From contig JAZTXG010000029.1 in NCBI GenBank assembly GCA_045636365.1, positions 22,086-86,085 of the forward strand: a stretch of 64,000 nt of DNA, in the 5' to 3' direction. The position numbers and the translations under genes are program-made. This stretch comes from Eubacteriales bacterium. Lineage in GTDB: Bacteria > Bacillota > Clostridia > Oscillospirales > QAKW01. How positions within the stretch are numbered: the first letter of the stretch is position 1; each line of letters opens with the position of its first letter. The notes under the pieces are model-generated. The model was not told the DNA's origin. It did not search any database and saw only the letters and a list, made by a program, of their open reading frames with translations. Below, in pieces: positions 28,460 to 44,036 of the stretch.

Positions 28460-28494
28460 AGCAGTTCCTTTCGCAGCCCTTTGGGGCTGCTTTT

Positions 28495-30027: not shown

Positions 30028-30045
30028 TGAAAACCTTTCATTAAA

Positions 30046-30951
30046 TTACATATGGATCGGAAGTGTGCGGGGAAGGATGGAAAATTCGCATTGGGGAAGA
30101 TCGCGGATCTCGCCGTCGATATTGATGCGCAAGGTTTCGCCTTCCCGCAACGGGGCGACCGAGACGGTATCGGCGCGGCAATGCACCACCGTATCTTTAA
30201 ATTGAAGGATCTTTCCGAGCAAAAGCCCCGGCAGATACCCGCACATTTGCAGGCGGGAGCAATCTTGAATGACGATCAATTCCAATTTTTCGCTTTCCAC
30301 ATCGGCCTTGGGGCTGATGGGAATACCGCCGCCGATATATTGCCCATTGGCTACCGAAAAGACCAGACAGTTGCCGCGGAACACTTCCTTACCGTCGGCT
30401 TGGATGACCATCGGCGCGGAGCGGTGGTGGAAAATGGCGGCAAGGACCCCCAAAAGATAGGAGGCTTTACCGCGGATTTTTTTGCGGTATTGGTTGGCAT
30501 AGTCCAGAACAGTGACATCAAAGCCTGCGCCGCACTCATTGGCAAAAAGAAGATCGTTGACTTTGCCGATATCGATATGGCGCACATTGGAATTTAAAAT
30601 ATGCTCCAGCGCCGCCATCGGCTCGGAGGGGACATGGAGGCTTTTGAGAAAATCATTCCCTGTCCCCGCGGGGAGGCTGGCGACAGGCAGGTCGCTTCCC
30701 AACGCGCCTTGGACGACCTCTAAAAAGGTGCCGTCGCCGCCGATGGAAAGGAGCATATTATCGTTTTGGGGATGTTCCTGATGCTCTTTGGCGGCTTTGA
30801 TTGCAAGCTCTTTTGCCTCATTGGGATAATGGGTTTCCCATACCCGATGGGGCAGATTTAATTCTTTGAGCCGTTCGACCACAGAAATTGCGACATTTTT
30901 CGCCTTTCCGCCCCCTGCCACAGGATTGACCAAAAGAGTAATCATTGGCAC
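30046..30951 (-). CDS. Diacylglycerol-kinase-family lipid kinase
   Basis: NPVAG, GGDGT, GTGNDF, NGQYIGGG, IDGE. Confidence 0.92.
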   Translation of the reverse strand: MPMITLLVNPVAGGGKAKNVAISVVERLKELNLPHRVWETHYPNEAKELAIKAAKEHQEHPQNDNMLLSIGGDGTFLEVVQGALGSDLPVASLPAGTGNDFLKSLHVPSEPMAALEHILNSNVRHIDIGKVNDLLFANECGAGFDVTVLDYANQYRKKIRGKASYLLGVLAAIFHHRSAPMVIQADGKEVFRGNCLVFSVANGQYIGGGIPISPKADVESEKLELIVIQDCSRLQMCGYLPGLLLGKILQFKDTVVHCRADTVSVAPLREGETLRINIDGEIRDLPQCEFSILPRTLPIHM

Positions 30952-31022
30952 ATTTCCTCCGAATTTCGATAAAAATCTACATTAGATTATAGCAAAACAC
31001 GCTTGAAATTGCAACCATAAAT

Positions 31023-31084
31023 CCTGTTCGGCCCTGTGCGGTAATTTTTTCCTATAATGGAAGCAAGAAAGGTTTTGTCGACAA
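31023..31084 (+). promoter_or_regulatory. Putative activator-dependent promoter of the virion operon
   Basis: Direct repeat CCTGTTCGG (31023-31031) / CCTGTGCGG (31033-31041) in place of a -35, TATAAT at 31053-31058, palindrome TTGTCGACAA at 31075-31084. Confidence 0.55.
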
Positions 31085-31112
31085 GTCTTTCAATCCAGGA
31101 GGTGAACCGAAG

Positions 31113-31367
31113 ATGAACTTCACAGAATGTATTGCCAAAGAGGTTTCCCGCGCCGCCTCCATGACCTTGCCCGAATTGGAGGAAGCGTTGGAGAGCGGGC
31201 AACATCGAACGGTCGGAGAACTCACTGCCCTTTCCTTGGCCAAGAAAGCGGCGGAGGGAGCGATGGATGCGGTGAAAATGATTCGGGAACTTGCCAAAGG
31301 GGAGCAAGCAACATCCGATCTCCCGCAGATCGAGATCCGTATTGTGGGGCAAGGCGCAGATGAGTAA
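31113..31367 (+). CDS. Putative small terminase subunit (short, no obvious HTH)
   Basis: 84 aa overlapping TerL start; helical LAKKAAEG..DAVKMIREL core and C-terminal beta strand IEIRIV; RBS ggaggtg. Confidence 0.6.
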   Translation: MNFTECIAKEVSRAASMTLPELEEALESGQHRTVGELTALSLAKKAAEGAMDAVKMIRELAKGEQATSDLPQIEIRIVGQGADE

Positions 31368-32679
31368 TCTCTGTTCCATAGATATTACCCCGCTCCAATA
31401 CCAATTTCTTTCTGCCGCAGAGGATGAGATCCTCTTTGGCGGCGCCGCCGGAGGCGGGAAGAGCTTTGGGCAGCTGGTGGATGCGCTGCATTATGCGCTG
31501 ACCTATGCAGGCTCGCGGCAGTTATTATTGCGGCGGACTCTGCCGGAATTGGAAAATTCGCTGATTCGCACCGCATTGGAATTATATCCCTCTTCCATAT
31601 ACCATTATGTATCCTCCAAGCATACCGGGGTCTTTGCCAACGGCTCGTTGCTGGATTTCGGGTATTGCGATAGCGAGCGGGATGTATTTCGCTATCAATC
31701 GTCGGAATACGATGTCATTCGCTTTGACGAGCTGACGCATTTCTCCGAATCAATGTATCTTTACCTGATGTCCCGCTTGCGGGGTGCCAAGCCCTTTCCC
31801 CGCCAAATGAAAAGCACCACCAACCCCGGCGGGGTCGGGCACGATTGGGTCAAGCGCCGATTTATCGATCCCGCGCCGCCCAATACCCCGATCTCCGATC
31901 CGCTGGGAACCCGCAGGTTCATTCCGGCGCGGGTGCAGGATAACCGCTTTTTAATGGAGGGGGATCCTCAATATATCAACCGCCTTTTGCGGTTGCCGGA
32001 GCAGGAGCGCAAAGCCCTTCTGGAGGGGGATTGGGATCTTTGCGAAGGACGCTTTTTTGCCGATTGGCAGCGGGAGAAGCACGTCTGCGCGCCCTTTGAA
32101 ATCCCCGACCATTGGCGGCGCTATTGCGCGCTGGACTATGGCTTGGATATGCTGGCGGGCTTGTTTATCGCCGAGGATGAGCAGGGCTTTTTCTATGTAT
32201 ACCGCGAGGTATATGAATCGGGTCTGATCGTATCCCGCGCGGCATCCAGGCTGAAGGCGGCATCTCCCGCCCAATGCCCCTATTATGCACCGCCCGATCT
32301 ATGGAGCCGGCAAAAGGATTCGGGGAAATCCATTGTCGACCTGTTTCGGGAGAACGGAGTTCCGCTCACCAGAGTCAGCCCTGCCCGCTCGGCAGGCTGG
32401 GCGGTGCTGCAGGAGTGGTTGCTCGACCGTATGGATCGGGATGGAAATCTACGCCCCAGGCTGAAGATTTTTTCCACTTGTGTCAACCTGATCCGTTGCC
32501 TGCCGATGCTGCAATGGGACCCCGAGACCATCGGCGATTGCCGAACAACGCCCCACGAGCTGACTCACGCGCCGGATGCTCTGCGTTATTTTGCCATGGG
32601 CTATCCCGGTGTATCGAAACCCCGAACCATCAAGCCTCCATCCATACTCGGAGGCAACAGAAAGGAATTGATCATATGA
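31360..32679 (+). CDS. terL: Phage terminase large subunit (Terminase_6 type)
   Basis: Walker A GGAAGGGKS, Walker B IRFDE, STTNPGG motif III, nuclease ALDYG and HAPDALRY. Confidence 0.95.
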   Translation: MSNLCSIDITPLQYQFLSAAEDEILFGGAAGGGKSFGQLVDALHYALTYAGSRQLLLRRTLPELENSLIRTALELYPSSIYHYVSSKHTGVFANGSLLDFGYCDSERDVFRYQSSEYDVIRFDELTHFSESMYLYLMSRLRGAKPFPRQMKSTTNPGGVGHDWVKRRFIDPAPPNTPISDPLGTRRFIPARVQDNRFLMEGDPQYINRLLRLPEQERKALLEGDWDLCEGRFFADWQREKHVCAPFEIPDHWRRYCALDYGLDMLAGLFIAEDEQGFFYVYREVYESGLIVSRAASRLKAASPAQCPYYAPPDLWSRQKDSGKSIVDLFRENGVPLTRVSPARSAGWAVLQEWLLDRMDRDGNLRPRLKIFSTCVNLIRCLPMLQWDPETIGDCRTTPHELTHAPDALRYFAMGYPGVSKPRTIKPPSILGGNRKELII

Positions 32680-32873
32680 CGATTTGGATGCTGATGTTAT
32701 CTGTTTTATGGATGCTGCTTGCAGTCGCTGCCTATCGATTGGGGATGGCCGACGGTCTTTCCGCCGCCCGCCGCGGTCGATTGGCAGGCGGCAAAGATCC
32801 GATGAAGGATCAGCTGCTCCGCCGCATCGAGGCCTACGACGGCAGAAAGGATTCTTATGCAAAACACGAGTGA
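32676..32873 (+). CDS. Small single-TM phage protein
   Basis: MTIWMLMLSVLWMLLAVAAYRLG...IEAYDG; RBS aaagga; ATGA overlap with terL stop. Confidence 0.65.
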   Translation: MTIWMLMLSVLWMLLAVAAYRLGMADGLSAARRGRLAGGKDPMKDQLLRRIEAYDGRKDSYAKHE

Positions 32874-34380
32874 ACAAATCTGGAAAGAATATCAAGAAGG
32901 CTGCGCACTGCTGACCCGCGACGGTTTTTACGACCGAAGCGAAGAATGTCATAGCTTTTATGCCGGCGATCAGTGGCGCTATCTGCAGACCGATGGGGAA
33001 CGACTGCCGGTCTACAACATGATCGAACCGATTGTGAAATATAAGACCGCGGTGGTCGCTCAAAACAATCTGACGGTGAATTATAGCTTTGATACCTCGG
33101 ACCACCCTGCATTATCCACCATTGCCCATCAGGCGGCGCGATTGCTCAATCGCAATGCGCGCTTGCTTTGGGAGCAAAACCAAATGGACCAAAAATGCTG
33201 GGAAGCGGTGGAGGATGGCTGTGTCACCGGCGCATCCTACCTCTATTTCTATATGCACAACGGTAGGGTACAGGCGGAAGTGCTGGACGGTGTCAACCTG
33301 ATTTTCGGCGACGAACAAGAGCAGGATATCAACGAACAGCCGTATATTTTGATTGTGCAGCGCCGCTCGGTCCGTCAGGTCCAAAAAGAGGCGCGTGCCA
33401 ATGGCATCGATGAGCAGGAAATTGCACAAATTTTTCCCGATACCGACCTGCTTTGCCAAAGCGGAATGGATCGGTTGCATGAAAATGCATTGGAGGAAAA
33501 CCGCAAATGTATTTCCATCCTGAAATTTTATAAAAAGGACGGCAATGTCTGCTTTACCCAATCCACAAAGAACTGCGTTTATCATCCCGAAACGGTATTG
33601 GCAGGGCTTTCCCGCTACCCCATCGCGCCTTTTATTTGGGCGCGCCGCAAGGGGAGCTGCCGCGGCAGAGGCGCGGTGGAAGGGCTGATCGCCAATCAGA
33701 TCGCCGTCAATAAAAACCTTGCCCGTATGGATATCGCCATCCGCCGCTTTGCGTTTCCCAAGCTGGTGTATAACGCGCCGCGGATTCAGAATGTGGAGGA
33801 TATCGAAAAGATCGGTGCTTCCATCGCGGTGGATGATCCCAATGTTCGCATCGGGGACCTGATCTCCTATGTGCAGCCGGCAGGAATCAATACCCTTGCC
33901 TATAACTTTATGGGCAATATGATTTCCACCACCCGCGAGCTTTGCGGCGCGGGCGATGCGGTGACCGGTCAGATCAACCCCGAGCAGGCCAGCGGCGCCG
34001 CCATTGTGGCGGTGCGGGAGGCGGCCACCTTGAACTTAAATTTCGCGGTGGCGCAGTTGACACGCTTTATCGAGGATGTGGCATTGATTTGGTATGACCT
34101 GCTGCGGGCATATCATCCTGCAGGGCTGACGGTGGAATCGGAATTGATTCCCGGCAAGCTGCTGCAGGTATTGGAGCCGCGGGTGCGGATCGATCTTTCG
34201 CCCGCCAACCCCTTTTCCAAATTTGCGCAGGAGCAATCGCTGCAAAATCTTCTCAATGCAGGATATATCTCCTTTGCAGAATATGTGGAGGCATTGGATG
34301 AGGATGCCAATGCGCCCAAAGAAAAGCTGCGCTCTATTCTGGCGGCGCGCCCGCCGATGGAAGCGGTAGTGCAAGAATAA
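32857..34380 (+). CDS. Portal protein (P22/podovirus-like)
   Basis: 507 aa after TerL; FY.GDQW, N.I.PIV, G.G.VE.LI.NQ..VNK, ASGAAI patterns. Confidence 0.85.
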   Translation: MQNTSEQIWKEYQEGCALLTRDGFYDRSEECHSFYAGDQWRYLQTDGERLPVYNMIEPIVKYKTAVVAQNNLTVNYSFDTSDHPALSTIAHQAARLLNRNARLLWEQNQMDQKCWEAVEDGCVTGASYLYFYMHNGRVQAEVLDGVNLIFGDEQEQDINEQPYILIVQRRSVRQVQKEARANGIDEQEIAQIFPDTDLLCQSGMDRLHENALEENRKCISILKFYKKDGNVCFTQSTKNCVYHPETVLAGLSRYPIAPFIWARRKGSCRGRGAVEGLIANQIAVNKNLARMDIAIRRFAFPKLVYNAPRIQNVEDIEKIGASIAVDDPNVRIGDLISYVQPAGINTLAYNFMGNMISTTRELCGAGDAVTGQINPEQASGAAIVAVREAATLNLNFAVAQLTRFIEDVALIWYDLLRAYHPAGLTVESELIPGKLLQVLEPRVRIDLSPANPFSKFAQEQSLQNLLNAGYISFAEYVEALDEDANAPKEKLRSILAARPPMEAVVQE

Positions 34381-34384
34381 AAAA

Positions 34385-34445
34385 TCGCAGGTGAACAGCG
34401 CAAAAATCGCAAAATGATTCGCAGGTGAAGAGCGTAAAAATCACA
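34385..34445 (+). repeat. Two 27-bp tandem repeats in the scaffold gene leader
   Basis: tcgcaggtgaacagcgcaaaaatcgca (34385-34411) and tcgcaggtgaagagcgtaaaaatcaca (34419-34445). Confidence 0.85.
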
Positions 34446-34458
34446 GAAAGGTTCATAT

Positions 34459-35022
34459 ATGAGCGAATTGAATACCGCGGTGGAAACCGCACCGGAGCAG
34501 GAAACTGCTCCTCAAACAACCTCGGAAGAAAAGACAGCCGAGAAAGAAGAAATGTCTAAAGAAGAACGGAGCAAGCAGGCCTCTCGCCGACGCGCGCTGG
34601 AGCAGAAAGCCGAAGAACTGCGTGCCGATGCTCGCCAGGAACAATTGCGGCAGGAGGTTATGAACCATCCTTTGGTGAAGGAAGCCATGACCTTGCTGGA
34701 GGAGAACCGTTTTAAGCAGGATCTGGACCGTGTGCGCGCGGCCTATCCGAGCCTGACCGCCCAAAGCCCCCAAGAAGTAGGGGAAATCTATTGCCGATTA
34801 ATGGCAAGCGGGCAGGTGGATCCGGTGGTTGCCTATGAAGCGCAAGCCGCCGCCGATCGCCGCAGGGAACCGATCCCCGAAAACATGGTGAGCGCAAAAT
34901 CGGCCGGAGGAGCCGCGCTCTATTATTCCTCTCAGGAGCTGGATCGGCTGACCGAAAAGGATCTTAAGGATCCCGATGTTTTTCGGAAAGCCATCGCTTC
35001 ATTATCAAAATTAAGGAGTTAA
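34459..35022 (+). CDS. Putative capsid scaffolding protein
   Basis: Acidic N-terminus, coiled coil, C-terminal helix-loop-helix; lies between portal and capsid. Confidence 0.7.
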   Translation: MSELNTAVETAPEQETAPQTTSEEKTAEKEEMSKEERSKQASRRRALEQKAEELRADARQEQLRQEVMNHPLVKEAMTLLEENRFKQDLDRVRAAYPSLTAQSPQEVGEIYCRLMASGQVDPVVAYEAQAAADRRREPIPENMVSAKSAGGAALYYSSQELDRLTEKDLKDPDVFRKAIASLSKLRS

Positions 35023-35026
35023 AACT

Positions 35027-35842
35027 ATGTCTTTTTCTAATTTTAAACCCACCATTTGGAGCCGTTTTATTCAAACCGAGCTGGAAAAGAAATGCAAGCT
35101 GGTGGATGATTGCAACCGCCAGTTTGAAGGGGAAGCCCGCCTGGGTGGCAGAGTCAAGATTTTAGGCGCGATCGCCCCCGAAATCTTCGATTATAAAGCC
35201 GCTACAGGTATGGATGCTCCCCAGACCTTGCAGGGTGTCAGCGTCTATTTGGATCTGGATCAGGCAAAGGCGTTCAATTTTATGGTGGATGATCTGGATC
35301 GTTTGCAGTCCAATCCCGAGCTGATGCCCATCGTCTTGGAGGAGGCCAGCCGCAAGATGGCGGTCGCCCGCGATACTTATGTGGCATCCATTGCCAAAGA
35401 GAGCGGATTTTTCACCAATTCGACCAAGGTAACCACCCCCGCGCAGGCAAAGGCGTTGGTCGATGAAGCATTGCTTACTCTGCGTGAGCATGATGTGGAT
35501 ATTGCTGATAATGTATCGATCACCGTATCCCCCTTCTTCTATCAACTGCTGCGTGATGCCTTGACCGAACTCAAGACCAATAATGATGAGCTGATCGCCC
35601 GCGGTGTGGTCGGTATGTACGACTGCGCTAAGGTGGTATTGAGCAACAATCTTTATAACGACGGTACCGATGATTATATGATGGTTCGTACCAATAAGGC
35701 GATTGCTTTTGCATCTGCCATTGATGAAACCGAGGCCTATCGCCCCGAGAAGTATTTCTCCGATGCGGTCAAGGGTCTCAATGTCTTTGGCGGTAAATTG
35801 GTTCGTCCCAAGGAACTTGTTGTCATCAAGGCTCATAAATAA
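35027..35842 (+). CDS. Major capsid protein (P22 coat/gp5-like, HK97 fold)
   Basis: NFKPTIWS, NRQFEGE, L.LDQAK.F.F.VDD.D..Q, FSDAVKGL.VFG.K.VRP; strong RBS. Confidence 0.9.
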   Translation: MSFSNFKPTIWSRFIQTELEKKCKLVDDCNRQFEGEARLGGRVKILGAIAPEIFDYKAATGMDAPQTLQGVSVYLDLDQAKAFNFMVDDLDRLQSNPELMPIVLEEASRKMAVARDTYVASIAKESGFFTNSTKVTTPAQAKALVDEALLTLREHDVDIADNVSITVSPFFYQLLRDALTELKTNNDELIARGVVGMYDCAKVVLSNNLYNDGTDDYMMVRTNKAIAFASAIDETEAYRPEKYFSDAVKGLNVFGGKLVRPKELVVIKAHK

Positions 35843-35868
35843 TAATTGGAAAGAAAGGAATTTGAAGT

Positions 35869-36204
35869 ATGACTTATTTTGATGCTACTCACAATAAAAA
35901 TTACGTATATTTTGACACCGACGTGTTAAATCGTTGCCCAAAAGTAGTGGCATATCGTGTTCCGGAGGATGCGGAATATGCGCTTCTTTTGTTAGGCATT
36001 GAAGACCCTTCTACAATCACTATTAAAGCAGCAGATTCTGTTTTGGGCGGAAAAGATCAGATATTTCCGTGCGAGTGTGGTTATAACGGTGTATTTCTGG
36101 AATTAAGCACCTTTATTCAGCGTTCCGGTGAGCACAAGGGGTGCGTTTTGATCGAATGTGCCGAGGATTCGTTTGAGAGCGATTTGTTCATTTGCTCAAA
36201 ATAA
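35869..36204 (+). CDS. Putative head decoration/cement protein
   Basis: 111-aa beta-rich ORF directly after the capsid gene; strong RBS. Confidence 0.5.
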   Translation: MTYFDATHNKNYVYFDTDVLNRCPKVVAYRVPEDAEYALLLLGIEDPSTITIKAADSVLGGKDQIFPCECGYNGVFLELSTFIQRSGEHKGCVLIECAEDSFESDLFICSK

Positions 36205-36226
36205 AATATACATCCCGGAGGTAATG

Positions 36227-36745
36227 ATGATGACAATTCAAGCGATTTTAAAATGTGCCGCGGTGCTGTTGGGTGTGCCGGAGGGGGCGGTGGAGCAAGA
36301 TGCTGTCTATGAGCGGTTGCTTTCTGCCTTGGATAGCGCATTAGGGGAACTGGCACGATGTTTTCCTCTGCAGGCGCGGTGCAGAATTACTGTGGTCGAT
36401 GGTGCGGTGGCGCTTCCTGCCGCAGTGCTGACTCCGCGTGCGCTGCTTCGGGATGGAAAAAGAGTGCCATTGCAATTGGATGAAGGAAAGCTGATGGCAG
36501 AGGATGGGGACTATACCTTGGTGTATTACCGTGTCCCGCCGATGGCATCGGCGATGGATCGTTCTGCGATCCTGCCCTATCCCGAAGATCTTTTGCGTGC
36601 CTTGCCCTTTTATTGCGCCGCTCTTTGCGTCATGGGGGAGGATCAGGCATTATATCTGCGCTTAATGGAGCAGTATAACACCAAATTGGCGGCAGCGCTG
36701 GGCTATCGCCCTGCGGCGGCGGTGGAAGCGGAGGGATCGATGTGA
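36227..36745 (+). CDS. Putative head-tail adaptor (tail tubular protein A-like)
   Basis: Position; YYRVP...LP.Y.AA pattern of podoviral adaptors. Confidence 0.6.
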   Translation: MMTIQAILKCAAVLLGVPEGAVEQDAVYERLLSALDSALGELARCFPLQARCRITVVDGAVALPAAVLTPRALLRDGKRVPLQLDEGKLMAEDGDYTLVYYRVPPMASAMDRSAILPYPEDLLRALPFYCAALCVMGEDQALYLRLMEQYNTKLAAALGYRPAAAVEAEGSM

Positions 36746-38805
36746 GTTATCCGTTCCATTCGTTAAATCGTGCGTCTGCAGGACGGACCGTTTGTTCGGA
36801 GATCGGTTTTTCCGGCTTGGATGTTGCAGGTGGCGCATTTAAGATGCCCATCTCCCGTGCCTTTGATACCGAAAACTTAATCTGGGAAGGGTCCGCACTC
36901 AAGCGCCGCCCCGGCTATCGCCTTATGGAAAATTACAGTAAAAAGATCAACGGCATCTATTTTGTCGGAGAGCATAAAATCGTCCATGCCGGAACAAATC
37001 TGTATATGCAAGCAGGGGATAATGTACCAAAACTGCTGTTTGACCGGATGAACGATGCCGCCTCCTTTGGTGTGGTGCGTAAGCAAGAGGTGGAGCATCG
37101 CTGGTGCAATTCCTCGGAAATGTATGGCTGGAGCCGTGAAAGAAAGGTTGGAGATTTTCTCTTTATCAACGATGGTAAAAACTATCTGTTTTTCGATGGA
37201 GAGCAGGTCCACTCGGTGGCTGATACCCATTGGGGTGAATCGCTGCGGGTCGATCTGCATGGCGGAATGGTCTATTCTACTTATGCGAAAGTTCCCATCA
37301 GCATTACCGGTAAACTTCCCAACGGGGACCACGGCGACGTGGATCCCCGCGGGGATAACCGCCTAAGCCAGTTCCGTTGCGAAAGCTTTTATGTGGACGA
37401 TAAAAAGGACTATACCGAGTTTGTTTTGGATCGCTACTATAAAGATTGCAATGATGGAATCCCCACCGAGATCCAGATCCGCGACAGCAACGGTGTCTGG
37501 CGCAACTACTGCTGCATCAGTGTGGATTTTTATTTAAACTATGATGATGTCCGTACCAAGCTTCAGATCGATACCCCCATCAAGGGCGGGATGCCCTTTT
37601 CCTTTGATACCGCAAGCGGGAAGATTGTGAACCTTGGCTACGGCAGCTCCTATATCGCCAACGACGGTATGGACAATCTGCGGATCACCTATGCAGTGCA
37701 TAAAGAGGCTCCCACCGCCTTGACCGGAGCAACGGTGCAGGGGCTTTATGGCACCGATGGGGCGGATAATGTCTTGTTTCTTGGCGGAAGCGAGCAATCC
37801 CCCGGCATCGATGCCTTCAGCGCCCGCGATGATTTCTTTTGCTTTTATGCCACCTCGGTCGAGCGGCTGGGCAACGAGCAGGTGCCCATCACAGGCTATA
37901 CCCGATTAAGCGATGGGCGGATCGCGGTCCTGAAAAACGATCCCAACGATTCCAATGTCTATTTTCGGACCCATAAGACTGTTTCGGTGGGCGCGACCCA
38001 AAGCGGAGAGGCGTATCAGGTGGATGCCTTCCCTTCCAAAGCGGGAGCTGCGGTGGAAGGCTGCATTTCCCCTCATTCAGTCGGAATTGCAGGGAATGAA
38101 CCGATTTTCTTGGCCGAATCGGGGTTATACAGTGTCCGCAGTGTCTCCAATGAATTAATTAATCTGGATGAGACCGTGCGGCGCAGCCTGCCTATCGACC
38201 CCTTGCTTTGCAAGCAGAATGCTGCCGATGCGCGCAGTATTCGTTGGCGCGAATATTATCTTTTGGTTTTCGGGAACCTTGCATTGCTCACAGACGGTCG
38301 GAGAGACACCGGCGGAATGCTTCGCTTTTTGAAATGGCGATTCGGTCATAAAATTACCGCCTTGGGCAAGAACGGAAACACGCTGTATTTGGGCGATGCG
38401 GAAGGGAAGGTCTTTGAATTCGGCGGCGCGGAAACGGATGCCGATTTGGAGAACGAAGCGTTCTGGCAGACCAATCTTTCCGAAGATTCCCGCGGCGCCC
38501 GCCAGATCCTCAAGCAGCTTTTGGTGGCCGTCAGTCCGGATTACAAGGGCAAGATCAAAGCGGTTCTTTATCGCGAGCAGGTACCCTGCCCGCAGGTGTC
38601 CATGGCATTGAATCGTGTGGATTTTTCCGCATGGGATTTTGATGCACTCACCTTCGACGGCACCGATGCGATGCGTTGGGTGCAACTCCCTGTGGGTTCA
38701 TTGGCGGCGGATCGATATGCGATCCGCATCGATCTGTGTTCAGGGCAGAATCTGTTGCTCTGGGGAATGCGGATGGTGTATGAAAAAGGAGGAACGGTAC
38801 GATGA
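36742..38805 (+). CDS. Putative tail nozzle/stabilisation protein (P22 gp10 / tail tubular B-like)
   Basis: 687 aa, beta-rich; F.GLD, N......L.RRPGY N-terminus and GCIS..S motif; position after adaptor. Confidence 0.7.
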   Translation: MSYPFHSLNRASAGRTVCSEIGFSGLDVAGGAFKMPISRAFDTENLIWEGSALKRRPGYRLMENYSKKINGIYFVGEHKIVHAGTNLYMQAGDNVPKLLFDRMNDAASFGVVRKQEVEHRWCNSSEMYGWSRERKVGDFLFINDGKNYLFFDGEQVHSVADTHWGESLRVDLHGGMVYSTYAKVPISITGKLPNGDHGDVDPRGDNRLSQFRCESFYVDDKKDYTEFVLDRYYKDCNDGIPTEIQIRDSNGVWRNYCCISVDFYLNYDDVRTKLQIDTPIKGGMPFSFDTASGKIVNLGYGSSYIANDGMDNLRITYAVHKEAPTALTGATVQGLYGTDGADNVLFLGGSEQSPGIDAFSARDDFFCFYATSVERLGNEQVPITGYTRLSDGRIAVLKNDPNDSNVYFRTHKTVSVGATQSGEAYQVDAFPSKAGAAVEGCISPHSVGIAGNEPIFLAESGLYSVRSVSNELINLDETVRRSLPIDPLLCKQNAADARSIRWREYYLLVFGNLALLTDGRRDTGGMLRFLKWRFGHKITALGKNGNTLYLGDAEGKVFEFGGAETDADLENEAFWQTNLSEDSRGARQILKQLLVAVSPDYKGKIKAVLYREQVPCPQVSMALNRVDFSAWDFDALTFDGTDAMRWVQLPVGSLAADRYAIRIDLCSGQNLLLWGMRMVYEKGGTVR

Positions 38806-38984
38806 GTATCTGGAACAATTTAAAATTCGGTCCACAGGAGATGGAGGCCAAAAGCGTTTCAACTCTTGCAGATCGCCCGAACATCTCGGCAGAAGAGCTG
38901 AAGACACGGTTGGATAGCACCGATATTCGCTTACGCTTTAATCAACTGCTGGACCGATTGGAAGAAAAATTCAGCGAGGAATAA
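38802..38984 (+). CDS. Small protein resembling the N-terminal anchor of tail fibres/spikes
   Basis: 60 aa; V.TLADRP..SAEELK.RLD......FN.L; RBS ggagg; ATGA overlap. Confidence 0.55.
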   Translation: MSIWNNLKFGPQEMEAKSVSTLADRPNISAEELKTRLDSTDIRLRFNQLLDRLEEKFSEE

Positions 38985-38988
38985 TATT

Positions 38989-39807
38989 ATGATCAGTACA
39001 GTAGATAAACTGTTGCTCAGTTCCGACCAACAAGCGGAATTGGCAGAATATACGCGGGCTTATAATGCCGCGCAGGCCGCCGGTGACCAAGCCGGAATGG
39101 AGCTTGCTCATCGGCGCGCCGAAGCGTTGCGCGCCTCGGCGGGCTATTCCGGCGGCGATGCGGGAGATCGCTTTATGCTGCTGACCAACGCGCAAAATGC
39201 CCCCGATGGCTATAGTGGCTATAAAAAGCTCATCAATGATGTGGCAACCGGCGGAATGAACGCCATCGCTGCGGGATATCAGCAGCAGATGGCGCAGCTG
39301 GATCAGCAACGTGCCGCGCTGGAAGCCCAAGGGGCTCAAAATCAGGCGGCGGCACGCTCAGCGGCTTGGAACACCCAGCGGTTGGCGGCCGATGGTTTGC
39401 TGACCCGCGGGCTTGAAAATACAGGGATCGCCGATGTCATTACCGCCACAGCCCTGAATCAGGCGGCGGCAAATGCCTATCGGGCATTGCTGGATCAGCA
39501 GCAGGATCTTCAGGAAAATGATACTGCCCGCCTGGATGCCCGCGCCGATGCTATGGAGGATGCCGCTCAACTTCAAGGGGAGCTCGGAACACTTTTGGCC
39601 GATGCCTACCAATCTTTTTATGAAAAGGATGCCGAACGAAAGCAAGAGCAGCTACTTCGCCAGTGGAGTACCAACACCGATCTTGCGCTGCAGGATATGA
39701 AAAATCAGGCGGCGGAAAAGAAGCAGGAGAAGGATTATTACTATACTCTGGCATTGCAGCAGCTCAAGCGCCAATGGGAATTGGAAGATCAGGCAAAGGG
39801 CCGATGA
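38989..39807 (+). CDS. Putative internal virion (DNA ejection/pilot) protein
   Basis: Ala/Gln-rich helical 272-aa protein (AH..AE..RA..GYSGG..G) at the ejection-protein position. Confidence 0.55.
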   Translation: MISTVDKLLLSSDQQAELAEYTRAYNAAQAAGDQAGMELAHRRAEALRASAGYSGGDAGDRFMLLTNAQNAPDGYSGYKKLINDVATGGMNAIAAGYQQQMAQLDQQRAALEAQGAQNQAAARSAAWNTQRLAADGLLTRGLENTGIADVITATALNQAAANAYRALLDQQQDLQENDTARLDARADAMEDAAQLQGELGTLLADAYQSFYEKDAERKQEQLLRQWSTNTDLALQDMKNQAAEKKQEKDYYYTLALQQLKRQWELEDQAKGR

Positions 39808-40145
39808 TTCCCGAGGAGCATATTTCTAAGGAATATTGCGCCGCCCGCAGCGGCGGGATCGAGCGGGTGCAAAGAATGGCGGAACGCCGCCTGGACGGGC
39901 ACGGTCAGAAGCTGGATGATCTGACCGGCGCCTGCATCCGCCTGACCGCCGCTGTGGAGCGGGTGACGCTGATTCTGGAGCGGCAGGATCAGCGATTGGA
40001 TCGGCTGGAAAGCCGAGGTATTTTAGCGTTTTTGGAAAGTTCTGCAGGAAAAGCGATGATTCGTTTTATCGGCATCGGCGCGCTGGTGCTGCTTTCGGCA
40101 GGGCTTGGTATCAATGTTGTTCAATTATTAAAGGAGGTCTTTTAA
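39804..40145 (+). CDS. Coiled-coil + C-terminal TM protein (XhlA-like lysis accessory)
   Basis: RRLDGHGQKLD...RLDRLE coiled coil then TM helix; precedes holin. Confidence 0.6.
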   Translation: MIPEEHISKEYCAARSGGIERVQRMAERRLDGHGQKLDDLTGACIRLTAAVERVTLILERQDQRLDRLESRGILAFLESSAGKAMIRFIGIGALVLLSAGLGINVVQLLKEVF

Positions 40146-40403
40146 ATGCATTGCACAAAACAAACGATCATCCGAACGGTGGTTCTTTTGATCGCATTAT
40201 TGAATCAGATCCTTCTTTTCATCGGCAAAAATCCGTTGCCGTTCAGTGAGGAAGGAATCTATGAAGCGGTGTCTTTGGTGGTAACCGTCGGCGCAAGCCT
40301 TTGGGCATGGTGGAAAAACAACAGCTTTTCCATCCAAGCCGCGGAAGCGGATCGCTATCTGGCGGCGCTTCGGTCCATCGATGAAACGGAGGGAGAAGAA
40401 TGA
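40146..40403 (+). CDS. SPP1-family phage holin
   Basis: TIIRTVVLLIALLNQIL...G.NPLP...WAWWKNNS.S..A. Confidence 0.9.
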   Translation: MHCTKQTIIRTVVLLIALLNQILLFIGKNPLPFSEEGIYEAVSLVVTVGASLWAWWKNNSFSIQAAEADRYLAALRSIDETEGEE

Positions 40404-40993
40404 CCAACTTACCCATCACCGGTGCCTTTCGGGTCACCGCGGTCTATGGTCAGCAGGGGAAATACTGGGCAAATGGTCATAAGGGCATCGATCTGGTGGC
40501 CGATGATCATCGCATCTATTCCACCTGCGAGGGCGTGGTCAAAACCGTTGCCTTCGATGCGGATGGCTGGGGGCAGTATATCGTCGTGGAAGATCAAGCG
40601 GGGCTGCGCCATTATTTTTGCCATCTGGTCCGCGGCAGTGCCAAGGTCAAGGTGGGGCAGGCGGTCAATCCGCTGACTGTTATCGGTACCATGGGCGCCA
40701 CCGGCAATGTGACCGGCTTGCATCTTCATTATGAACTGCGCAAAGGCTCCACTGTTTTGGACCCTGCCGCTTGGCTGGGGATTCCCAATCAAGTCGGCAG
40801 CTATCATTCTTCTGATTTTGAGGTGAAAGAAATGCTTTATAAAGACCAAGCAGAGATCCCTGCATGGGCGAAAGAGGCTGTGGAAAAGGTGACCGAAAAG
40901 GGCTGGATGGAGGGCGATACACAGGGCAATTTCCGACCCAACGACCCCATCACCCGCGCCGAAATGGCGATGATCCTTTCCCGCCTGAATTAA
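40400..40993 (+). CDS. Endolysin: M23 peptidase + C-terminal SLH domain
   Basis: HKGID, CHL, TG.VTGLHLHYE; WAKEAV...FRPNDPITRAEMA; no signal peptide. Confidence 0.88.
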   Translation: MTNLPITGAFRVTAVYGQQGKYWANGHKGIDLVADDHRIYSTCEGVVKTVAFDADGWGQYIVVEDQAGLRHYFCHLVRGSAKVKVGQAVNPLTVIGTMGATGNVTGLHLHYELRKGSTVLDPAAWLGIPNQVGSYHSSDFEVKEMLYKDQAEIPAWAKEAVEKVTEKGWMEGDTQGNFRPNDPITRAEMAMILSRLN

Positions 40994-41021
40994 AAAGCCG
41001 CTCTGCATCGGCAGAGCGGTT
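40994..41021. terminator. Hairpin between endolysin and convergent NUDIX gene
   Basis: agccgctctgc-atcg-gcagagcggtt. Confidence 0.65.
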
Positions 41022-41030
41022 GAGAAAAAC

Positions 41031-41567
41031 TTATTTTTTTAATAAAGCGGCGGCTTTGAGGATGGCGTTTTGGGTCTTGCCGTCGGTGATTTCACCATCG
41101 AGCACCATCTGAAGCGCCTGCTCAAAGGGCAGGGAGACGACCTCTAAAAATTCATCGTCATCAAGATTATTTTTTTGAGGGATCAGGTTGCGCCCCAGAT
41201 AAAGATATGTCAATTCCCCGAGATATGCAGGGGAGAGTTCCATATAACCCAGAGGAGTTACCTCTTGGGGCAGAAACCCGACCTCTTCGGTCAGCTCCCG
41301 CACCGCGGTCTTCATCGGATCCTCGCCGGGCTCCAATTTTCCGGCGGGGATCTCTAAAAGAGTTTTATCCACCCCATAGCGGTATTGGCGCACCAGATAA
41401 GTCCTTCCGTTTTCATCGATGGGCAAGATGCCTGCACCGCCGCTATGGGCGATACGGTCGCGGGACGCAGTCTTTCCGTCGGGAAGTTCCACCGTTCCGC
41501 TGTATACCTGAAAGATCGGTCCGTCATAAAGGATGCGTTCTTCCAACTTTTTTTCGACAATAGACAT
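41031..41567 (-). CDS. NUDIX hydrolase (ADP-ribose pyrophosphatase, NudF-like)
   Basis: RQYRY, EIPAGKLE.GE....AVRELTEEVG Nudix box, DGKT. Confidence 0.92.
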   Translation of the reverse strand: MSIVEKKLEERILYDGPIFQVYSGTVELPDGKTASRDRIAHSGGAGILPIDENGRTYLVRQYRYGVDKTLLEIPAGKLEPGEDPMKTAVRELTEEVGFLPQEVTPLGYMELSPAYLGELTYLYLGRNLIPQKNNLDDDEFLEVVSLPFEQALQMVLDGEITDGKTQNAILKAAALLKK

Positions 41568-41706
41568 AGTAATCTTCACCTCACATCTATTATTTTAAAA
41601 GCCTTGTCGATTTTTGTCAAACGATTTCTCTTTACATTTTTGTCGAAATATGTTTTGATGAGAGTACTCCTTCGACGAAAACCGACACTGCTTCACGGAT
41701 GTCGAC
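41553..41706. promoter_or_regulatory. Cluster of Spo0A-box-like heptamers upstream of the XRE/activator cassette
   Basis: TTCGACA 41553-59, TGTCGAT 41605-11, TGTCAAA 41615-21, TGTCGAA 41641-47, TTCGACG 41671-77, TGTCGAC 41700-06. Confidence 0.55.
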
Positions 41707-41731
41707 CCCCGTATATAGAGGAGTAAAAAGG

Positions 41732-41926
41732 ATGTTTAATTATCTTTATATGAATCGGGTCCGTAGCGGACTCACCCAGCAGGAATTGGCGGCGCGCGCC
41801 GGCATTTCCAGACGCACAGTCTGCAGGCTGGAGCAAAGCGGCGCTTATCCGTCGCTGCGGGTAGGCTTGCAAATCAGCCGAGCGCTGCAATGCAGCTTTG
41901 AGGAGGTGTTTCCTCTTGGCTTGTAA
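41732..41926 (+). CDS. Small XRE/Cro-like HTH regulator
   Basis: R.RSGLTQQELAARAGISRRTVCRLE.....PSL....ISRAL.CSFEEVF. Confidence 0.85.
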   Translation: MFNYLYMNRVRSGLTQQELAARAGISRRTVCRLEQSGAYPSLRVGLQISRALQCSFEEVFPLGL

Positions 41927-42080
41927 ATGCAGAAACTGCGCTGCGGTATTTGCCGCTCCCGCGATTGCAATGGAACGCCACGGTTGCGATGGCCCGTGGT
42001 ATGAGCGGGTGGAGATCTGCCCTTATTGCCGTATTTCCGGTATGCTGGAGGTTCAGGACGATGCAGGTCTCACATATTAA
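41916..42080 (+). CDS. Small zinc-ribbon protein
   Basis: TTG start after gaggaggtg; CRNC..F..P ... CPYC. Confidence 0.65.
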   Translation: MACKCRNCAAVFAAPAIAMERHGCDGPWYERVEICPYCRISGMLEVQDDAGLTY

Positions 42081-42429
42081 ATATCTACGTAAAGAATTGG
42101 AAGAATACCGCTTGCTATTGGCATCCTTCCCCGAAGGGGGCGGCTGGCAGGCGCAGGTCTTTCGCAAAAAACTGCAAAAAGCCGCCGAGCATCTGGCGGC
42201 TGAATTATGGGAAATTTCCAAGGTGATCGGCGCAATCGACGATTCGGAATTAAGGTTGATTTTCCAACTGCGGTATTTCAGAGGTTATACCTGGGCAAGG
42301 GTGGCGGAAGAGCTTCCCACCACCCTTTCTGCCGATGGCGCTCGGATGAAACACGATCGGTATCTAAAAAAGGTTCAATCGGTCAAAAAGGAAGGCGCGA
42401 CAGGCTTGTCTTCGCTCCATAGTTCATAA
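42061..42429 (+). CDS. Phage late-gene activator-like protein (RinA/ArpU/DUF1492-like, sigma-region-4 HTH)
   Basis: I..IDDSELRLIFQLRYFRGYTWARVA........A..ARMKHDRYL. Confidence 0.75.
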   Translation: MQVSHIKYLRKELEEYRLLLASFPEGGGWQAQVFRKKLQKAAEHLAAELWEISKVIGAIDDSELRLIFQLRYFRGYTWARVAEELPTTLSADGARMKHDRYLKKVQSVKKEGATGLSSLHSS

Positions 42430-43022
42430 TGGAGATGGTCGGTCTCGCCGCATTCCAGAAGCATTGATTTTCCCACCGTTCCGATGATGTCGCCACGCTT
42501 TAATAACTGACCTTCCTTGACAGCAACGGTTGCTAAAGAAGCGTAGCGCGAAACCTTGCCGTCGGTATGGCGAACAGTGACCATATTTCCCATCAGGTCA
42601 TCCTGCTCCACCGTTTCTGCCACCCCTTCACATACATTGGCAACTTCGGTTCCGGCCGCGGCAGCGATATCGATGCCGTTATGGGTACGCCAATCCTTCA
42701 ATGTATAGGAATAGAGGGGCTTTTCAGGGGAATACTGAGCAATGATCTCTCCATTTTCGATGGGAGCGGAATATTCTGCGGCGGCAGCCTGCGGTGCTTT
42801 GGTTTCTTCCTTGTTTTCCAAAGGTTCTTCCCGTTCGTCGGGGATGTTTTCTTCTACCTTTTCTACCCCTTGGGTATTGGGTGTATCCAGCGGGGTTTCG
42901 GCCAGTTTTCGTTGGGAAGCGCGATAGGAAAGAAAGCTGACGCAGCCCACGGTCAGAACACATAAACCCAATACCAAATAATAGCCTTTGGATTTCAGAA
43001 AATTCAAAATCTTATCTTTCAT
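42375..43022 (-). CDS. spoIIQ: SpoIIQ-like M23 membrane protein
   Basis: KGYY.VL.LC N-terminal TM, YS.TL.DWRTHNGID, HLHYE; downstream of spoIID; SigF/G-type promoter. Confidence 0.8.
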   Translation of the reverse strand: MKDKILNFLKSKGYYLVLGLCVLTVGCVSFLSYRASQRKLAETPLDTPNTQGVEKVEENIPDEREEPLENKEETKAPQAAAAEYSAPIENGEIIAQYSPEKPLYSYTLKDWRTHNGIDIAAAAGTEVANVCEGVAETVEQDDLMGNMVTVRHTDGKVSRYASLATVAVKEGQLLKRGDIIGTVGKSMLLECGETDHLHYELWSEDKPVAPSFLTD

Positions 43023-43055
43023 TTTTCGGATCCTCTCATCAAATGGTTTTGTTGT

Positions 43056-43085
43056 TAATATGAGCAGGATCCGATCGGATTATTC
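43056..43085 (-). promoter_or_regulatory. SigF/SigG-type promoter of spoIIQ
   Basis: GAATA-N15-GCTCATATTA. Confidence 0.65.
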
Positions 43086-44036
43086 ATCGAAATGATATTT
43101 TTCCAGAGTGGTATGCGGATAATAATAAGCCAGAATTTCCTGATAAGTATATCCCTCTTCGGCGAGGACGCAGGCGCCGTGTTGGCTCATACCCACCTGA
43201 TGGCCATAGCCGCAGACCTTGAAAATGGCTTGGTCTTTTTTGAATTCCAAGGTGAATCGCGTGCTGCGTAAGCCAAAAAGGGTGCGGATTTCTTGACCGG
43301 TGTAGGTCTTATTACCCAAGCGGATGGTTTTTACCGAGCCTCCGTTTGTATGGGTAATTTCACCGAGGGTGCAATCTTCTTGATTCAAAATGTTTGAAAA
43401 TTCTTCTAAAGGCAGTGTCACTTCGGAACGGAAGTCTTTTGCCTGCTGGTCCCAAGAGGAATCTAATGATTGAAGATAGGGAATATCGGCGCCCCAAATA
43501 TCCTTTGCCGATTCGGTCTTTCCGCCGGAGATGGCATGAAATACGGTGTTTGCCGGCGCGTTATCATAAAGAACAGCGGTCCCTAATACCGCTTCGACTG
43601 CGAAATTTAAAATCGGCTCGGAAGATTCCAGCCAATCGTTGCCCCATTTTTCGGCGGCATCGGCAGGGGAAAGATAGGCTTTGCAATGGGCAGGGTTATC
43701 GCAGACATCGCCGCTATGCCCGAAATCGCTTTCGGGATGGCTTTGGATGCTTGCTTTGCGATGCAAGAGATAACTATAGGATGCCACCACCTGCGCCTTT
43801 AATGCTTCCTGCGGATAGGAGGCGGGCATTTCTCCCGCCAGAACACCCCATAAATAGTCCTTGAGCGGGAGTGTTTGGGTGGTTTGGCTCTCGGTGCAGT
43901 ATAAGGTGACGATGGAGCCTTTGGGTGGCTCGGGGATTGGCTCTTCTTCGAAAAAACCGACCTTTCCCAATATTAAAACAGCTATAAACGGCAAAAACAA
44001 AACGATAAAATATAAAACAATCCATTTTTTCTTCAT
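43080..44036 (-). CDS. spoIID: Stage II sporulation protein D
   Basis: YL.GVLAGEMPAS...EALKAQ, HCKAY, GYGH.VGMSQ.GA, ILAYYY. Confidence 0.93.
   Translation of the reverse strand: MKKKWIVLYFIVLFLPFIAVLILGKVGFFEEEPIPEPPKGSIVTLYCTESQTTQTLPLKDYLWGVLAGEMPASYPQEALKAQVVASYSYLLHRKASIQSHPESDFGHSGDVCDNPAHCKAYLSPADAAEKWGNDWLESSEPILNFAVEAVLGTAVLYDNAPANTVFHAISGGKTESAKDIWGADIPYLQSLDSSWDQQAKDFRSEVTLPLEEFSNILNQEDCTLGEITHTNGGSVKTIRLGNKTYTGQEIRTLFGLRSTRFTLEFKKDQAIFKVCGYGHQVGMSQHGACVLAEEGYTYQEILAYYYPHTTLEKYHFDE

Follow-up and report, generated by a model that had tools for sequence, protein, structure and literature searches.

The DNA considered here, called the window throughout, is a stretch of 64,000 nucleotides from an Eubacteriales bacterium (JAZTXG010000029.1, our contig C29, positions 22086-86085), the genome of which (G000) comprises 1.50 Mb in 38 contigs and is rated 98% complete. 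It contains a phage-derived element, a plus-strand operon of 14 genes (31113-40993) for the parts of a virus particle and for cell lysis, with a small regulator operon behind it, and this element, its relatives and its probable role are the subject of this study. All genomes compared had been binned from gut metagenomes of animals and humans and belong to uncultured Clostridia or Eubacteriales, among which the genus of the window is labelled g1 and other genera of the same family g19 and g18. The features of the locus are listed in Table 1.

The open reading frames (ORFs) of the operon are uninterrupted and run from a gene in the position of the small terminase (TerS) through the large terminase (TerL), an ORF of 65 amino acids (aa), the portal, the scaffold, the capsid, a 111-aa gene and the adaptor to the nozzle, a 60-aa ORF, a 272-aa coiled-coil protein (g272) and a three-gene lysis set. 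TerS and TerL overlap by 8 nt, the TerL/65-aa ORF and g272/g160 junctions have the form ATGA, and three more junctions overlap by 4 nt. A first-pass annotation of this DNA had described a single operon of intact, translationally coupled ORFs, which the uninterrupted string with its overlapping junctions bears out, and its estimates of the distances to the host genes on either side (about 160 and 40 bp) agree with the measured values of 161 bp between the start of the DAG kinase gene and the TerS start at 31113 and 37 bp between the lysin end at 40993 and the NUDIX end at 41031, where a terminator hairpin (40998-41019) is common to both genes. The span that it gave, 31023-42429, holds only in part, since its last 1.4 kb (41031-42429) consists of the host NUDIX gene on the opposite strand and the three-gene regulator operon. 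Rfam yielded zero matches across window positions 30000-43200.

Table 1. Features of the element, its regulator operon and the adjoining host genes, in window coordinates.
Feature	Position	Strand	Description
DAG kinase	30046-30951	-	host gene
Operon promoter (presumed)	31025-31058	+	TGTTCG-N4-TGTGCG, 11-13 nt, TATAAT; -35 absent
Palindrome TTGTCGACAA	31075-31084		in TerS leader; candidate operator
TerS-position gene	31113-31367	+	84 aa, helical; named by position
Large terminase TerL	31360-32679	+	439 aa; phrog_979 2.9e-48, Terminase_6N 7.5e-9
65-aa ORF	32676-32873	+	N-terminal membrane helix; ATGA overlap with TerL stop
Portal	32857-34380	+	507 aa; P22_portal 6.5e-14, phrog_156 4e-24; start confirmed by orthologue alignment
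Tandem repeat, portal-scaffold spacer	34385-34452	+	two 34-nt units TCGCAGGTGAAnAGCGyAAAAATC
Scaffold	34459-35022	+	187 aa; named by position between portal and capsid
Major capsid protein	35027-35842	+	271 aa; phrog_267 5.4e-36
111-aa protein	35869-36204	+	fast-evolving, between capsid and adaptor
Head-to-tail adaptor	36227-36745	+	172 aa; ORF open from 36158; SU10_adaptor 2.9e-6
Tail nozzle	36742-38805	+	687 aa; predicted-structure match
60-aa ORF	38802-38984	+	phrog_14469 6e-4, weak likeness to tail-fibre N-terminus
272-aa protein (g272)	38989-39807	+	all-helical coiled coil after nozzle
113-aa protein	39804-40145	+	coiled coil and C-terminal membrane helix (orthologue alignment)
Holin	40146-40403	+	Holin_SPP1 3.1e-28, phrog_263 5e-26
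Endolysin	40400-40993	+	Peptidase_M23 4e-20 and SLH 3.6e-15 wall-binding domain
NUDIX hydrolase	41031-41579	-	NUDIX 3.5e-16, NudE-like 8e-24; host gene between structural operon and its regulators
Regulator promoter region	41606-41647	+	GTCGA-N5-TGTCAA and TGTCGAA box
Xre-type HTH regulator	41732-41926	+	64 aa; HTH_3 6e-11; top PHROG hits phage repressors/regulators
Zn-ribbon ORF	41916-42080	+	about 54 aa; CxxC ... CxxC read from sequence
Activator candidate	42061-42429	+	122 aa; sigma-70 region-4-like

The gene list of the first-pass annotation stands for TerL, portal, capsid, adaptor, nozzle, holin and endolysin, whereas its TerS, scaffold and 'ejection-like' protein were assigned by position only, and the 65-aa membrane ORF (32676-32873) was missed. 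TerL is the sole match of the genome to the three TerL Pfam families searched, and its GGAAGGGKS, DE and several acidic residues, which we take to be the Walker A, Walker B and nuclease residues, are unchanged in 20 orthologues. The protein in the TerS position gave zero matches in Pfam, PHROG and NCBIfam, its sequence has no recognisable DNA-binding domain, and its family, as defined by profile search, has 93 members, every one of which comes from this lineage. The idea that it is a truncated Terminase_2 protein was rejected after profile comparison (probability 0.3%), and a sequence search of the PDB returned nothing meaningful. When the complex of this protein with TerL was modelled, the score was 0.42 (best control 0.00), which the tool itself grades as weak support; this score was attained by 58 of 80 solved complexes and by 2 of 110 mismatched pairs, scores of 0.60 or below being those of 7 of the 80 solved complexes and of both mismatched pairs. 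In these models the contacts agreed by at least 87% between runs and the partner had a predicted local distance difference test (pLDDT) value of at least 71. For the 65-aa ORF the family searches gave zero matches, and a similarly shaped ORF of 76 aa occupies the matching position in the prophage relative L133.

The spacer between portal and scaffold contains a tandem repeat, the 34-nt motif of which is legible in 23 of 25 other loci of the genus, the spacer being missing in L035 and L036 (G023 and G011); its possible role is that of an internal promoter or of an RNA signal boosting the output of scaffold and capsid. The scaffold is conserved at 63-98% within the genus and found no match in PHROG and Pfam-type family searches, and the capsid has the lowest rate of nonsynonymous substitution (dN) among the genes of the element. 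An intact homologue of the 111-aa gene, 107-120 aa long, is present in 26 of 26 loci, yet window and G004 share only 41% identity in its product, against more than 90% in those of its neighbours, with a ratio of nonsynonymous to synonymous substitution (dN/dS) of 0.43; it is possibly exposed on the surface of the head or neck and is a candidate for diversifying selection. The match of the adaptor to SU10_adaptor has 28.3 bits at a cut-off of 27, and its orthologue alignments set in near the ATG at 36227.

The nozzle was recognised by its predicted fold, since sequence-family searches with this protein gave zero matches. Its AlphaFold model, based on 22 orthologues, is all-beta (pLDDT 81.8, predicted template modelling score 0.84), and in a Foldseek search of the PDB the best 24 matches were all podovirus tail or nozzle chains with E values from 4e-14 to 1e-8, including those of A4, Pa223, GP4, E1004, P22 gp10, SU10 and T7 gp12; the atlas search returned unnamed phage clusters only. 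The 60-aa ORF that follows was detected in 10 of the first 20 loci of the genus. The model of g272 has three helices of 55-63 residues with a pLDDT of just 66.7, which was too uncertain for a fold search, and this was dropped; the middle section of the protein differs in length between orthologues, it shows a weak likeness to the post-nozzle gene in g19, and it may serve as a needle, plug or fibre. Apart from the weak phrog_14469 match of the 60-aa ORF, the 111-aa, 60-aa, 272-aa and 113-aa proteins received no family assignment from Pfam, PHROG or NCBIfam. The distance from the capsid gene to the holin gene is just 4.3 kb. Because none of the ORFs of the operon matched a tube, sheath or tape-measure gene, the particle is predicted to be of the short-tailed (podovirus) type, and the P22-like character suggested by the first-pass annotation agrees with the fold of the nozzle and with the P22_portal and SU10_adaptor matches. 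The element shares portal, adaptor and nozzle with tails of the P22, T7 and SU10 types and differs from these phages in lacking tailspike, fibre, recognisable ejection protein, replication and lysogeny modules.

The gene before the holin had been called ejection-like; its coiled coil and C-terminal membrane helix give it a topology that is presumably XhlA-like, and it looks like the first gene of the lysis set rather than an ejection protein. In the lysin of G005 (L025 11370-12092), judged by eye, an amidase-like half replaces the M23 domain while the SLH end is kept and the ORF is intact, and the lysin of the G018 locus (L026) likewise matches that of the window over the SLH end only.

The locus consists of structural and lytic genes only, without replication, integration or excision genes of its own. 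Two tyrosine recombinase genes, both on contig C13, and one serine recombinase gene, on C3, were found in the genome and none on C29; neither an integrase nor a replication gene was detected, and a search of G000 for a helper in the form of a second terminase (three TerL Pfam families) was equally negative. The search for a flanking attachment (att) repeat returned only two exact repeats of 15 nt, both inside coding genes and both judged to be chance, so that the first-pass annotation was right in reporting neither integrase nor att repeat. One of the two lies in the TerL and HTH genes. The other (30712-30726 in the DAG kinase gene and 41136-41150 in the NUDIX gene, 10.4 kb apart) flanks the operon and was attributed to chance because both genes are intact and conserved. 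The sole tRNA gene of the window lies 4.5 kb upstream of the operon. A temperate prophage would be expected to have an integrase or recombinase, att repeats, a repressor switch and replication genes, of which only a small Xre-type helix-turn-helix (HTH) gene is present; a satellite resembling the capsid-forming phage-inducible chromosomal islands (cfPICIs) would be expected to have an integrase, a replication module and dependence on a helper, none of which was found here.

All 24 genomes of the genus that were drawn first carried the capsid gene, which was also found in 47 of 48 other genomes of the family (29/29 in g1, 12/12 in g19 and 6/7 in g18), and, among genomes of other families in the order, in 5 of 16, at 31-40% identity. 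Within g1, 28 genomes hold a copy that is 78-97% identical to that of the window, and the 2.6 Mb genome G048 has just a 50% copy; G048 was considered as an empty-site test and set aside, as it has no NUDIX orthologue and its DAG kinase match is 28% identical, which leaves no informative junction. Synteny was analysed by mapping the proteins of the window to stretches of at most 20 kb about each g1 copy (20 + 8 loci). The order of genes from TerS to the lysin is constant in all g1 loci, 17 of which hold the whole string on one contig. Of the 21 loci long enough to include TerS, 20 (all but G012) have the DAG kinase gene as the next gene upstream, and of the 17 that go on beyond the lysin, 15 have the NUDIX gene as the next gene downstream, the regulators following the lysin directly in G019 and G023; further downstream, SpoIIQ, SpoIID, aldolase, DegV and MnmA genes are found in most loci with sufficiently long contigs, and the right flank past the regulators diverges in G011, G014 and G023. 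TerS, TerL, portal, capsid, adaptor, nozzle, g272 and holin show zero internal stops or truncations in 28 loci, partial matches being due to contig ends. In agreement with the vertically kept locus that the first-pass annotation had proposed, the arrangement from the DAG kinase through lysin, NUDIX and regulators to SpoIIQ is thus shared across the genus at a fixed position, presence is not patchy in the family, and no orthologue is broken. One bin, G024, contains two capsid copies of the fixed type on two short contigs of its own, C78 and C29 (L071 and L072; 78% and 80% identical to the window), which are sisters and probably represent two strains in one bin.

In a Nei-Gojobori comparison of the window with G004, the closest pair with full data, 12 genes of the element have dN/dS values of 0.019-0.134 at a synonymous rate (dS) of 0.17-0.70, and eight flanking host genes have dN/dS values of 0.036-0.171 at a dS of 0.20-0.60. 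When all pairs with unsaturated dS are taken, the median dN/dS ranges from 0.085 (capsid) to 0.29 (nozzle). Of all genes at the locus, those for capsid, portal and TerL are the best conserved (dN/dS 0.02-0.08). Since dN/dS and dS resemble those of the flanking host genes, the element is of the same age as its surroundings and under equal constraint, and dN/dS is far below 1, as the first-pass annotation had predicted. These data also bear on the idea of a functionless prophage remnant in decay that is conserved by shared ancestry alone. The loss of lysogeny, replication and early genes would fit it, as would a tail-fibre gene cut to 60 aa or lost; yet the 14 ORFs have stayed open across species with saturated synonymous sites, dN/dS is 0.019-0.134 in the pair above, and promoter and activator are conserved in two genera, so that the selection data already contradict this idea and we find it scarcely credible.

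In a phylogenetic tree of 60 capsid copies, the 29 fixed copies of g1 form one clade (support 100/99), as do nine copies of g19 (100/98) and the copies of g18 (100/100), and copies from second loci, among them those linked to recombinases, fall outside the g1 clade. Concatenated trees of element and flank for 13 species share the groups (G050,(G000,G004)) and (G010,(G013,G022)) with similar branch lengths, their backbone being short and the deep order poorly supported. The first-pass annotation had called for TerL and capsid trees to be compared with the species tree; the trees of capsid, element and flank favour host co-divergence in the single clade of fixed copies and in the shallow clades, which match the flanks, and leave it unsupported in the deep order and in one conflict concerning G019, described below. 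Overall, the locus appears to have been inherited vertically with the host lineage and kept intact under purifying selection.

Eight second loci with capsids 45-67% identical were found in genomes of g1. The three that were examined (G007:C11, G019:C180 and G018:C38; capsid 54-67%) share with the element the families of TerL, portal, adaptor, nozzle, holin and M23-SLH lysin. In them, portal and scaffold are separated by the lysis genes, and small genes form an arm on the opposite strand. G007:C11 and G019:C180 have a Terminase_2 TerS of 142-162 aa, and after the portal G007:C11 encodes a 1041-aa protein with a peptidase M14 domain, in the place of which G019:C180 and G018:C38 have two ORFs. 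The distance between capsid gene and recombinase gene is 24 kb in G007:C11, 18 kb in G018:C38 and 6.6 kb in G007:C5, G019 being outside this search, and the chromosomal locations of these relatives differ. The three loci are real prophages of one phage group with the element. What the fixed element has lost in comparison is the arm of early genes, the large virion protein and a TerS that binds DNA; its lysis genes stand at the end. A pattern scan of limited reach through the 2.9 million viral contigs of IMG/VR returned three further relatives with capsids of 72%, 50% and 34% identity. The second of these, L148 (IMGVR_UViG_3300042258_000418; 23.3 kb, capsid 50% identical to that of the window), is possibly a small, almost complete podovirus of ancestral type, from which the size of the ancestral genome might be learnt.

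The copies in g19 have a prophage-like gene order. No recombinase gene was found on the 94 kb contig of G057, and the nearest in G062 is 65 kb away (two genomes searched). Their gene in the TerS position encodes 76 aa and aligns with that of the window, their dN/dS is 0.005-0.21, and genes of the right flank are shared in at least 9 of 11 loci (a membrane-protein gene in 10, a kinase-like gene in 9). The left flank varies, and in three loci (L116, L114 and L108) it carries, immediately before the TerS-like gene, what appears to be the end of a tRNA gene, a tRNA being a typical site of old phage integration. Two g18 loci share right-flank genes. The domesticated state seems to span the family, either through one old event followed by rearrangement or through a few events.

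A satellite or prophage that is still mobile and re-inserts at one site by means of the integrase and replication genes of a helper would be compatible with the recombinase-bearing prophages in some genomes of the genus, with the tRNA remnant beside three g19 copies and with the one tree conflict within the genus. We consider it very improbable, given that the element has no recombinase, replication gene or att repeat and a dS equal to that of its flanks, that its fixed copies form one clade with the prophages outside, that no helper terminase was detected in G000 among the three TerL Pfam families searched, and that the pattern scan of limited reach through the IMG/VR contigs returned only the three relatives, none above 72% capsid identity.

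The spacer between the DAG kinase and TerS genes is variable save for one block, TGCAA(C/T), TGTTCG-N4-TGTGCG, 11-13 nt and TATAAT, which is conserved in 22 aligned loci of the genus and matches, as a strict pattern, once in the 1.5 Mb genome. A similar arrangement, TGTTCG-N4-TGTTCG followed by TAAAAT, precedes the TerS-like gene in 9 of 9 loci of g19. The block is presumed, from its sequence, to be an activator-dependent late promoter. Bare TGTTCG-N4-TGTGCG has a sole other site in the genome, on the minus strand of C17 near position 3137, without TATAAT spacing. Between the block and TerS lies the palindrome TTGTCGACAA, a sequence found once in the genome and shared by the window with its three closest relatives only (L022, L055 and L056), other species having different palindromes or no insert in the TerS leader.

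The product of the last gene of the regulator operon is the likely activator, with matches to phrog_36 (7.2e-12), phrog_248 'transcriptional activator' (0.005) and Sigma70_r4 (0.0066, below cut-off). A profile search found it in single copy in 27 of the 29 other genomes of g1 and in all 12 of g19, with only weak hits in 5 of 7 of g18. In g19 the Zn ribbon and the activator form one fused ORF (G062, L144 11159-11659, 166 aa), which lies about 0.6-1.1 kb from the NUDIX gene in 6 of 6 genomes checked, the capsid gene being on another contig. That the regulator keeps its place where the structural operon sits elsewhere, and that a matching promoter is conserved, would be expected of an activator paired with a late promoter. 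In G062, genes for an ImmA-like peptidase and an ImmR-like HTH protein, read by eye, lie between the NUDIX gene and the fused ORF.

The first-pass annotation had noted the absence of a CI/Cro switch, which does not strictly hold in view of the 64-aa Xre-type HTH protein encoded in the regulator operon. This protein is 57-100% identical within the genus, and it may repress both operons, as half-sites of TTGTCGACAA recur upstream of its gene. Upstream of the regulator operon, the consensus tGTCGAAAAATGTCAA stands just before a -35-like TTTAC in 16 of 17 loci, with a strict TGTCGAA, which we take to be a Spo0A box, in eight of them. The strict TGTCGAA box is also found upstream of a SpoIIGA-like ORF in G000; the tandem Spo0A-type motif of other species has zero matches in G000, and its looser form is intergenic only at this locus. 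These motifs may point to the host-style control that had been proposed for the element, the conserved activator being of phage type. That particle production is wired to the Spo0A decision to go into stationary phase or sporulation, with tGTCGAAAAATGTCAA acting as Spo0A boxes beside spoIIQ and spoIID, is a conjecture to which we give little credit. If it were true and the particles were made in doomed cells, such as the mother cell that lyses to free the spore, lysis would cost the lineage next to nothing and the puzzle of how GTAs, or gene transfer agents, are maintained would have an answer.

The same neighbourhood could be read as a sign that the phage was domesticated mainly for timed lysis or the release of DNA, be it for biofilm matrix, cell contents or spores: a complete lysis set closes the operon, the swap of the lysin catalytic domain in an intact gene suggests selection on lysis, and the regulators with their Spo0A-box-like motifs adjoin spoIIQ and spoIID. 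Capsid, portal and TerL, however, are the most conserved genes, which indicates that selection acts on DNA-filled heads and not on lysis alone, and we therefore judge this explanation quite improbable.

We read the locus, with somewhat better than even confidence, as the domesticated remnant of a small podovirus-type phage that has been inherited vertically and kept because its particles benefit the cell, its likeliest role being that of a GTA of the kind found in Faecalibacterium (FpGTA). Domestication had also been proposed by the first-pass annotation, and synteny, the single clade, dN/dS, the intact genes and the absence of att sites and recombinase on C29 came out as it predicted. In such a system, a signal, possibly the entry into stationary phase or sporulation, would act on the promoter of the regulator operon beside the NUDIX gene, and the Zn-ribbon protein and the sigma region-4-like activator would bind the TGTTCG repeats that replace the -35 element and turn on the single late promoter. 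Scaffold and capsid would then assemble procapsids on the portal, and TerL with its 84-aa partner would fill the heads by a headful mechanism, the substrate probably being the chromosome at large because there is no site-specific TerS, replication or excision. Adaptor, nozzle and coiled-coil protein would seal the head as a stub tail, and the membrane protein, the holin and the SLH-anchored lysin would burst the cell. As those of a GTA, the particles would have heads too small for the locus and would deliver host DNA to recipient cells.

The closest known system is FpGTA, which is likewise a cluster of about 10 kb in gut Clostridia, with genes for TerL, portal, scaffold, capsid, a short tail and a TerS that has no DNA-binding domain (PMC12946183). 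Neither FpGTA nor the present locus has genes for replication or integration, and each occurs in every examined species of its host genus. FpGTA is divided into Operon I of 10.5 kb and Operon II of 5.5 kb (fibre, receptor-binding and lysis genes) 125 kb apart, and its heads of about 40 nm look tail-less, contain some 8.5-9 kb of host DNA and are released by lysis in late stationary phase (PMC12946183). Here, in contrast, there is one operon with the lysis genes at its end, no fibre or receptor-binding gene was found in it, and the regulators form a separate unit; the hosts also differ, Faecalibacterium there and a different, uncultured family here, the two systems being compared here by gene content and layout. 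A scan of genome contigs with the capsid returned no Faecalibacterium record. FpGTA was made known first in a preprint of 2024 and then in Nature Communications in 2026 (Borodovich et al., PMC12946183), a report that also notes GTA-like packaging of whole genomes of Christensenellaceae and other gut Clostridia, with the loci unnamed there; GTA candidates in Coprocola have been proposed in a preprint of 2026 (10.64898/2026.07.08.737213). In the literature on FpGTA and GTAs we found no publication on this family or locus. The first-pass annotation, which knew of no such element in this group, is superseded on this point by FpGTA, and the element, as a strong candidate, joins a podovirus-like kind of GTA in gut Clostridia that has been opened up very recently and of which it is not the first member.

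A PBSX-like defective particle, one that contains DNA and kills competitors or has another extracellular role without productive delivery, seems to us rather unlikely. The fixed place, the purifying selection and the lack of mobility genes would fit it too, and an arms race at the cell surface could lie behind the fast evolution of the 111-aa protein. PBSX resembles the element as a defective phage in the chromosome of a Firmicute that packages host DNA and has an Xre repressor, a sigma-like activator and a lysis set; the membrane protein, SPP1-type holin and wall-anchored lysin are laid out here like xhlA-xhlB-xlyA of PBSX. However, PBSX is about 28 kb long and kills by means of a long contractile tail, whereas the operon has adaptor and nozzle only, with no match to sheath, tube or tape-measure genes, and neither a receptor-binding nor a killing module was found in it. 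The chromosomal fragments packaged by PBSX are of 13.4 kb, according to the FpGTA report (PMC12946183).

The GTA reading also has a counterpart outside the Firmicutes. RcGTA of the Alphaproteobacteria is, like the element, a phage-derived cluster of head and tail genes that is inherited vertically under purifying selection and lacks replication and integration genes; its TerS has no DNA-binding domain, its regulators lie elsewhere and its particles are released by lysis. It differs in its siphovirus-like long tail, its dispersed loci and its control by CtrA and quorum sensing, as opposed to the podovirus adaptor and nozzle found here, and we know of no sequence relationship between the two. 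To our knowledge very few GTAs have been described, nearly all of them in Alphaproteobacteria. The RcGTA-type systems of that class have been reviewed (PMC9662315 and PMC11841831).

Several points weigh against the GTA reading. The locus is known from gene sequence, from which particle, packaged DNA and transcript are predicted; twenty sequencing runs contained parts of it, all of them kept as contigs, the best with 13% of the sampled words, and none of them is on record as RNA. The TerS label depends on position and on the weak score of the modelled complex. As isolated phages with capsid relatives (33-36% identical) package 38-59 kb, the particle might hold the entire 10-11 kb locus, whereas a GTA is expected to be unable to carry itself; these phages are, we believe, mostly long-tailed. 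Beyond the weak match of the 60-aa ORF, the operon yielded no candidate for a tail fibre, a spike or a receptor-binding protein. The Xre-type HTH protein, for which the TerS leader may contain an operator, makes a switch of phage type and not clearly one of host control. Base composition, described as host-like in the first-pass annotation, is so in tetranucleotide distance (70th percentile), and the GC content of the operon is 53.1% against 48.2% for the genome (94th percentile of windows of the same size). In the trees, G019 groups with G006 for the element (support 97) and with G003 for the flank (support 83, from flank data that are only half complete for G019), and in view of this conflict some exchange within the genus may have taken place. 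Finally, the pairwise distances of element and flank are only moderately correlated, with a Pearson coefficient of 0.50 and a Spearman coefficient of 0.10 over 78 pairs, most species pairs being nearly equidistant, for which reason trees were preferred to the correlation of distances.

With the first GTA of gut Clostridia, which is also the first short-tailed one, reported only in 2026, the element provides a well-bounded candidate locus across an uncultured family in herbivore, rodent and human guts, together with a testable set of a likely activator, a promoter motif and related true phages, by comparison with which the losses of domestication become visible. If its particles do move host DNA, capsid-mediated gene flow in gut Firmicutes would be broader and older than one genus, and the possible link to Spo0A would offer a testable idea on how costly GTA systems persist. 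Beyond the DAG kinase gene, at 28028-30027, lie genes for a dUTPase and for an SLH-Amidase_3 wall hydrolase, two kinds of gene that are frequent in phages; they are syntenic in most loci of the genus at 41-85% identity and were taken as host genes.

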